Numbered from the stretch's first letter, positions 11,765 to 12,439 are shown. The stretch: 32,000 nt of DNA from Corynebacterium amycolatum (GCF_049243625.1 NZ_CP046975.1); one strand, 5' to 3'. Notes: a model not told the origin generated them from the letters alone. Translations and numbers: made by a program.

Positions 11765-12439
11765 ATGAGCTCAAAAATCCTGGTTGTTGATGATGATCCG
11801 GCCATCGCCGAAATGCTCACGATGGTGATGGAGCGCGAGGGCTTCGACACAGTAGTAGTCGACGATGGCATCGAAGCTGTCAAGGCAGCAGAGCGGGAGA
11901 ATCCAGATTTGATTCTGCTGGATCTCATGTTGCCGGGCATGGGTGGTGTCGATGTCTGTCGCACTGTGCGAGAGACATCGGCGGTGCCGATCATCATGTT
12001 GACTGCGAAGACCGACACGGTCGATGTGGTCCTCGGCCTGGAATCCGGTGCGGATGACTATGTCACGAAGCCCTTTAAGCCGAAGGAGCTCGTGGCGCGT
12101 GTGCGCGCTCGGCTGCGTCGTCAAGAGGACAGCCCGAGTGAGACCCTCGAGGTCGGCGACCTGACTATCGACGTGCCCGGTCACGCCGTGTTCCGCGATG
12201 GCAAGGAGATTTCTCTGACCCCGTTGGAGTTTGACCTATTGCACACTCTTGCATCCCGTCCGAAGCAGGTCTTTTCCCGTGATGAGTTGTTGGAAAAGGT
12301 CTGGTGATATCAGCACACCTCGGATACTCGACTCGTCAACGTTCACGTTCAGCGTCTGCGCTCGAAGATTGAACTGGATCCGGAAAACCCCCAGATTGTG
12401 CTGACCGTCCGCGGTGTCGGGTACAAGACGGGTGACTAA
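11765..12439 (+). pseudogene. mtrA: OmpR-family response regulator MtrA interrupted by an in-frame TGA (codon 181)
   Basis: The receiver domain is intact (ILVVDDD, DLILLDLMLPG, KP). The frame stops at TGA 12305-12307 after LLEKVW. The same frame then continues as [43 protein letters not shown] to TAA 12437-12439, which is the canonical MtrA recognition helix and wing. Orthologues have Gly (WGY) at the stop position. Confidence 0.85.

Follow-up and report, generated by a model that had tools for sequence, protein, structure and literature searches.

The question raised by this locus is why mtrA of Corynebacterium amycolatum, in a stretch of 32,000 nucleotides of the genome GCF_049243625.1 (NZ_CP046975.1; hereafter, the window), is interrupted by an in-frame TGA, and whether this interruption means that the regulator has been lost. 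Among the two-component systems of the Actinobacteria, MtrAB-LpqB is the most widely conserved; it controls cell-wall hydrolases, cell division and envelope permeability, and has been discussed as a drug-sensitising target (PMC3353115, PMC9159947). An earlier note on this DNA had considered a real nonsense allele giving a receiver-only protein, read-through of the UGA, and a base-call or assembly error. The results presented below lead us to consider it likely that the TGA is a genuine, recent and heritable nonsense allele causing loss of function, and that the loss of mtrA in the sublineage concerned is probably not accidental.

Results and discussion

The mtrA reading frame and its neighbours

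The gene order sahH-tmk-mtrA-mtrB-lpqB is kept in the window as in every related locus, as judged by gene calls and Pfam, and the MtrA encoded here matches that of Mycobacterium tuberculosis (2GWR) over residues 2-223 with an E value of 1.5e-103 and aligns with 3NHZ as well; synteny and the 2GWR match together uphold the identification of the gene as mtrA in the earlier note. Translation confirmed also that the frame opened at ATG 11765 ends, after ...SRDELLEKVW, at a TGA in the context GTC TGG TGA TAT, and that the same frame runs on past it unshifted for 43 codons to the TAA at 12437-12439 (Table 1). The 180-residue product is already present in databases, annotated as response regulator MtrA [Corynebacterium amycolatum] (GAB6964059.1 and XQS61232.1), and exact matches to the proteins encoded next to it carry this species name as well.

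The proposal that the stop replaces a conserved glycine through one G>T change held as well. Gly181 is invariant across an alignment of 14 Corynebacterium MtrA sequences and, in M. tuberculosis MtrA (2GWR), corresponds by alignment to Gly184 of the EQVWGYRH motif. A full-length protein of 224 residues identical to the repaired window sequence (P0064) was found by homology search on 61 contigs, and at the ten P0064 loci compared base by base, the closest of the intact alleles, the codon is GGA: the 675-bp gene differs there from the window at one base only, position 12305, which is G and not T, and the flanking DNA shows 14-50 differences per 20.7 kb. The TGA is a derived single G>T substitution in an orthologue that is otherwise unchanged, a resemblance far beyond chance. 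A one-residue variant of full-length MtrA (P0065) was found on 379 contigs, together with many further full-length alleles. One C. amycolatum MtrA of 223 residues (P0109) has lost one Asp of the 'DDD' at D9-D11 by an in-frame loss of 3 nt. Matches of 199-220 residues were considered as possible further truncations and were rejected, being alternative start calls or cuts at contig edges.

Table 1. Features of the mtrA region, with positions counted from the first nucleotide of the window
Feature	Position	Strand	Remarks
sahH	9581..11035	+	upstream; carries 10823 G>A (A415T), marker of the TGA lineage
tmk	11081..11710	+	immediately upstream of mtrA, intact; anchor independent of mtrA status
truncated mtrA ORF, 180 aa	11765..12307	+	receiver, linker and first 35 positions of the winged-helix profile
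GAT codon, Asp53	11921..11923	+	predicted phospho-acceptor, retained in the truncated product
38 bp deleted in CP008913.1 and SRR2889780	11938..11975	+	present in the window; between imperfect repeats
premature stop TGA (G181*)	12305..12307	+	ancestral GGA, derived base T at 12305
orphaned 3' part of mtrA, 43 codons and TAA	12308..12439	+	sequence still the same as in intact alleles
recognition helix, residues 189-202	about 12329-12370	+	AlphaFold2 secondary structure, 3' of the stop
wing hairpin, residues 211-220	about 12395-12424	+	AlphaFold2 secondary structure, 3' of the stop
mtrB, with GGGAG Shine-Dalgarno (12461-12465) and TTG start (12473)	12461..14191	+	572-aa kinase, intact
lpqB	14192..16033	+	613-aa lipoprotein, partner of MtrB; intact

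The partner genes were found to be intact, as had been claimed: mtrB encodes a kinase with HAMP, HisKA and HATPase_c domains (Pfam) from its TTG start, preceded by GGGAG, and lpqB is complete. The exact MtrB protein occurs also in strains with an intact mtrA, and the exact LpqB allele is common to intact, TGA and deletion strains (for the latter, see below). The start of mtrB now lies 165 nt past the upstream stop, versus 33 nt in the intact gene, and its translation probably continues from its own Shine-Dalgarno sequence. MtrB would still signal, but without its cognate output, and MtrA-dependent regulation would be missing from strains with the TGA. An ORF at 15996-16784, which overlaps or follows the end of lpqB, is called with 242, 164 or 85 residues, or not called, depending on the assembly, and has no Pfam match, so that it counts as a putative gene only.

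Domain anatomy of the truncated product

In the 180-residue product, Pfam recognises Response_reg (PF00072) at residues 5-114 (E 2e-31) and only positions 1-35 of the 77 of the Trans_reg_C profile; when a glycine is placed at 181, positions 1-76 of that profile are regained (E 7e-29). The complete winged-helix domain of the MtrA family is therefore lacking from the product and present if the TGA is ignored. The receiver is that of the family, with D9-D11, D53 and K102 invariant in the Corynebacterium MtrA alignment, and Asp53 is given as the phosphorylation site of Corynebacterium glutamicum MtrA (PMC3353115). The locus is the mtrA gene, and its product is not a complete member of the OmpR/PhoB family.

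Full-length MtrA was modelled by AlphaFold2 (pLDDT 83.8). The modelled output domain comprises a beta-platform (127-149), helices at 153-164 and 172-180 and a loop, followed, beyond the stop at 181, by a helix at 189-202 and strands at 211-213 and 218-220, a predicted fold that corresponds to the canonical OmpR/PhoB winged helix. Of the helices in this family's winged-helix fold the third serves as the recognition helix, and the wing is formed by the terminal hairpin. According to the model, the stop falls directly after helix 172-180, and helix 189-202 and the hairpin lie downstream of it, which bears out the earlier claim that the recognition helix and the wing are lost; the alpha2-alpha3 loop, just past helix alpha-2, is also encoded 3' of the stop. 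What the product keeps is the whole receiver with Asp53 and a 66-residue stump of the output domain (beta-platform, alpha-1 and alpha-2). Lacking loop, recognition helix and wing, the G181* product would leave MtrA operators unbound; the model suggests that the 180-residue protein would be unable to bind DNA and is likely unstable, and from the domain anatomy we infer that G181* leaves the regulator null, or nearly so.

Distribution of the TGA allele

Assemblies were counted as carrying the allele when they encoded the exact truncated product or showed the TGA in the DNA, which rendered 14 separately produced assemblies from three archives: two NCBI genomes (GCA_054653755.1 and GCA_014335175.1, the latter with the TGA in the DNA and no CDS called at the mtrA site), six JGI metagenomes (3300000384, 3300000847, 3300000850, 3300000851, 3300000861 and 3300001194) and six sequencing runs (DRR723690, SRR13181162, SRR13181607, SRR13855167, SRR13855168 and ERR1254316). 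The final tally amounted to 47 samples, 14 with the TGA, two with a 38-bp deletion in mtrA and 31 intact, and codon 181 is GGA in all 33 samples (31 intact and 2 with the deletion) other than those with the TGA. The TGA assemblies are 100% identical to the window or one base off it over up to 21.8 kb, all of them at 0.07 mismatches per kb or less, and the intact samples lie 0.5 to 36 mismatches per kb from it. Because all 14 are near-identical, they represent one clone and not independent origins of the mutation, and some of them may stem from a single strain sequenced repeatedly, or from contamination with that strain.

Within this set the TGA co-segregates perfectly with a second private marker, the Thr at position 415 of SahH (A415T). 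A further change, 8120 C>A, is common to JGI assemblies 3300000847, 3300000850 and 3300001194 and absent from 3300000384 and from the isolate genomes, which indicates that the clone diversified after gaining the stop. Alignment to the closest relatives thus places the TGA in a single clone, with GGA elsewhere, in agreement with a strain-specific change, and the allele shows what is expected of a real nonsense mutation, namely a sense codon in the closest relatives, a derived state by comparison with outgroups and reproducibility across sequencing efforts.

A pattern scan of metagenomes retrieved three contigs only, at 96-98% identity and all with GGA; as it missed the JGI contigs known to bear the TGA, it yields no allele frequencies. 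The contig C958_104459 of JGI 3300000861 (L003, L135) misses short stretches, for example 13244-13264, so that mtrB, lpqB and secA appear split; these gaps look like poor assembly rather than biology.

An independent mtrA lesion in the sister lineage

The nearest genomes were found by anchoring on the exact LpqB allele. The closest is CP008913.1, Corynebacterium sp. ATCC 6931 (NCTC 1914), which, together with SRR2889780, keeps GGA at codon 181 in the alignment and lacks the 38 bp indicated in Table 1. The deletion, which sits between the imperfect 16-nt repeats CATGGGTGGTGTCGAT and CATCGGCGGTGCCGAT, causes a frameshift after Pro57, and the gene is called in two pieces, AIN81694.1 (84 aa) and AIN81494.1 (147 aa), both annotated as response regulators. 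The TGA clone and ATCC 6931 are mutual closest relatives among the sampled loci, and a further close relative, SRR27110052, has both sahH and mtrA in the ancestral state.

In 21.9 kb, the TGA clone and ATCC 6931 are separated by five events, all of them derived relative to 13 outgroup loci. ATCC 6931 has sahH G159A and the 38-bp deletion in mtrA; the TGA clone has mtrA G181*, sahH A415T (its only other non-synonymous private change in the 21.9 kb) and a synonymous change at 23330. Two of the five thus disrupt mtrA. Conditioned on the TGA, by which the region had been chosen, three or more of the four remaining private events would fall in sahH or mtrA, which make up 9.7% of the region, with a probability of 0.0034; the probability of finding one of the two events of the sister lineage in mtrA is about 0.06. 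Both figures (about 0.003 to 0.06, depending on the framing) are post-hoc and derive from very few events, so that they hint at selection or at a permissive background and are not a proof. Among the places listed in five surveys of up to 24 contigs each, anchored independently of mtrA status on lpqB, tmk, mtrB, hpf and DUF4259, a third type of mtrA lesion was not found. A literature search retrieved no publication describing G181* or the 38-bp deletion, and the C. amycolatum pan-genome paper holds no useful mention of mtrA or of these strains.

Alternative explanations of the TGA

There is a negligible chance that the TGA is an artefact of a single assembly, with GGA as the true codon. G>T is a common artefact of oxidative damage, and the window alone cannot exclude a base-call error, but the TGA is present in 14 separate assemblies (NCBI/DDBJ, JGI and SRA/ENA), including de novo Logan assemblies of raw reads, it co-segregates with SahH T415, and the same pipelines give GGA in other strains. 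This refutes the error that the earlier note had considered and argues for a real allele. It is also very improbable that the UGA is recoded, as a near-cognate Trp or Gly, as selenocysteine or by a reassigned code, so that functional full-length MtrA is still made. Low-level read-through of UGA occurs in bacteria generally, TGA is rare as a stop in the window (one of 23 genes) and the 43 downstream codons are perfectly intact, but the youth of the allele, in a gene with no other change, explains that integrity; since the clone has not diverged downstream of the stop, sequence evolution is silent on whether the 3' part is still used. Reassignment of UGA (code tables 4 and 25), a possibility raised by the stop standing in place of Gly, was rejected, as no other gene of the window has an in-frame TGA, the 22 other confident genes being free of in-frame stops. 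Selenocysteine insertion or structured read-through was rejected as well: no SECIS-like hairpin follows the UGA, the next 66 nt folding worse than 199 of 200 shuffled sequences (z = +1.76), no Rfam recoding element was found (fiv_FSE and mir-210 match at chance level, E 0.4-0.9), and no suppressor tRNA lies within the window, the sole tRNA of which is a tRNA-Ala. UGA followed by U is, moreover, a comparatively efficient terminator in Escherichia coli, Gly is encoded in every strain outside the one clone, and the lesion of ATCC 6931 is a frameshift, beyond rescue by read-through. Read-through is therefore left with no support, with no downstream structure, no other in-frame TGA and no conservation of the codon beyond the clone.

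If the allele is real, the 180-residue protein could be stable and, phosphorylated by MtrB, act as a phosphate sink or as a module for signalling by protein-protein contacts. Its receiver domain, Asp53 and acidic pocket are intact, mtrB is intact with its own Shine-Dalgarno sequence, and other systems are known in which stand-alone receivers act as sinks. We nevertheless hold such a role to be quite unlikely, given that no full-length MtrA is left with which the product could compete or which it could buffer, that it ends in the middle of a domain with 66 residues of a broken winged helix that would be likely to misfold, and that the sister lesion cuts the receiver itself short after residue 57; with that lesion inside the receiver, the two lineages have the loss of MtrA in common and not the acquisition of a receiver-only protein. 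A conserved family of truncated MtrA proteins was not found either, the 180-residue forms belonging to one clone and the other short members being contig-edge fragments of full-length genes. A different objection is that both lesions are products of the culturing of collection strains, with no bearing on natural populations. ATCC 6931 (NCTC 1914) is an old collection strain in which the deletion could have arisen in culture, and laboratory-evolved lines of C. glutamicum have repeatedly gained mtrA deletions; against this, several SRA runs and JGI metagenomes have the TGA on contigs that are short and fragmented and look like mixed samples and not pure cultures, it is present in two draft or complete genomes submitted separately, and the sub-variant 8120 C>A is common to three metagenomes. 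An origin of both lesions by domestication is thus unlikely, and a nonsense allele that abolishes MtrA function remains the preferred reading of the TGA.

Changes in sahH and other variation in the region

Four of the five polymorphic sites of sahH among 19 C. amycolatum sequences are non-synonymous (G159A, S196L, H213P and A415T), each of them private to one lineage, a pattern that is odd for a housekeeping enzyme; for comparison, the ratio of non-synonymous to synonymous sites is about 4 to 8 in lpqB and 0 to 1 in mtrB. In a 2026 study of C. glutamicum evolved in the presence of formaldehyde, sahH (G254V; A310D) and mtrA (574-579del; 391-411del) were recurrently mutated and are among the 16 genes that were mutated in three or more of the four strains evolved; reintroduction of the evolved mtrA alleles did not succeed, and sahH G254V was without effect on tolerance (PMC12914118). 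The likeness to the C. amycolatum lineages is striking. A functional coupling of sahH and mtrA was considered and downgraded, because the two sahH changes private to the lineages with mtrA lesions, G159A and A415T, look mild, and S196L and H213P occur in lineages with an intact mtrA. The ancestral Ala415 matches the M. tuberculosis enzyme, Thr presumably occupies the equivalent position in the human one, and G159A falls in an insertion segment that is absent from mammalian enzymes.

Other variation was seen across the window. An 18-bp in-frame indel at 8171-8188, within a minus-strand ORF (8012-8788), distinguishes strains with a hypothetical protein of 258 residues from strains with one of 252. 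Between 4600 and 20100 the SNPs form a mosaic, the left part (4678-8906) grouping the window with L092, L094 and L097 and the right part (13186-15763) with L096, L101, L105 and L108, which indicates recombination between C. amycolatum strains. The 23 confident genes of the window end in TAA (14), TAG (8) or TGA (1), so that TGA is rare as a stop in spite of a G+C content of 55-62%. In a more distant strain (CP066023.1, L146), positions 10491-12660 hold genes for a phage-type integrase and a Peptidase_M78 protein shortly after the 207-aa gene downstream of secA, at a place where the window has HAD and DUF6912 genes; this place is likely an insertion site for a prophage or island.

Significance of the probable loss of MtrA function

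C. amycolatum is a human-associated skin species without mycolic acids, a commensal and an opportunist. As we envisage it, GGA changed to TGA, turning Gly181 into a stop, in one clone of this species in which MtrB and LpqB stayed intact, and the clone is viable and has spread, having been sampled 14 times and having later gained a further SNP. Such viability and spread fit the dispensability of MtrA in Corynebacterium, as in C. glutamicum. A nonsense allele specific to one clone is, in a well-known regulator, nothing out of the ordinary; what raises this one above that level is how widely the clone has been sampled, together with the second knockout, in ATCC 6931. That ATCC 6931 has inactivated mtrA independently makes it probable that the loss in this sublineage is no accident, and MtrA loss would then be specifically tolerated in this background, or positively selected. 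Only tentatively, and with less conviction than for the loss itself, do we suggest that in one C. amycolatum sublineage it is of advantage to inactivate MtrA, or that an epistatic background there specifically permits this. Should this be the case, natural populations of a mycolate-free, human-associated Corynebacterium would be selecting against a regulator that is conserved across the Actinobacteria, and the strains would be natural mtrA-null backgrounds in which to ask what MtrAB-LpqB senses and why it is dispensable. In mycobacteria, depletion of MtrA lowers envelope integrity and drug tolerance (PMC9159947), so that the benefit of a loss is not obvious.

Two independent alleles that appear to be null would indicate that Corynebacterium can lose the regulator outside the laboratory, and they provide natural strains that retain MtrB and LpqB in its absence. 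A literature search found no published report of natural mtrA loss in commensal or clinical Corynebacterium. Users of ATCC 6931/NCTC 1914 and of the GCA_054653755.1 clone should be warned that these are not wild type for envelope regulation, and that mtrA status could bias work on antibiotic susceptibility, morphology and osmotic stress carried out with them.

Comparison with known systems

The window shares with the M. tuberculosis (Rv3246c, 2GWR) and C. glutamicum (Cg0862) systems the gene cluster, a receiver with Asp53 and an output domain of the OmpR type, and differs from MtrA of MtrAB-LpqB in that the gene is broken at codon 181, so that the recognition helix and the wing are not encoded. 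In M. tuberculosis the system is essential, and its depletion raises envelope permeability (PMC9159947). In C. glutamicum, on the other hand, delta-mtrA and delta-mtrAB mutants are described as viable but pleiotropic, with elongated cells and altered susceptibility to penicillin, vancomycin and ethambutol (Moker et al. 2004, as summarised in PMC3353115). Loss of MtrA is hence compatible with life, which makes a natural null allele plausible, and phenotypes comparable to those of the C. glutamicum mutants or of depleted M. tuberculosis would be expected in the TGA clone. Those mutants are laboratory deletions, whereas the allele described here is a spontaneous point mutation with mtrB retained.

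The lines of C. glutamicum evolved on formaldehyde resemble the lineages described here in that independent changes in mtrA and sahH were gained within a short evolutionary time, with the difference that the mtrA deletions of the former, labelled as frameshifts in the paper, have lengths that are multiples of three (PMC12914118). In C. amycolatum, every sample outside the two affected lineages has a full mtrA of 224 codons. Loss of function of agr in Staphylococcus aureus and of rpoS in E. coli recurs and persists in particular clones. The loss of mtrA is alike in being a disruptive mutation in a pleiotropic regulator, for which two events are now documented.
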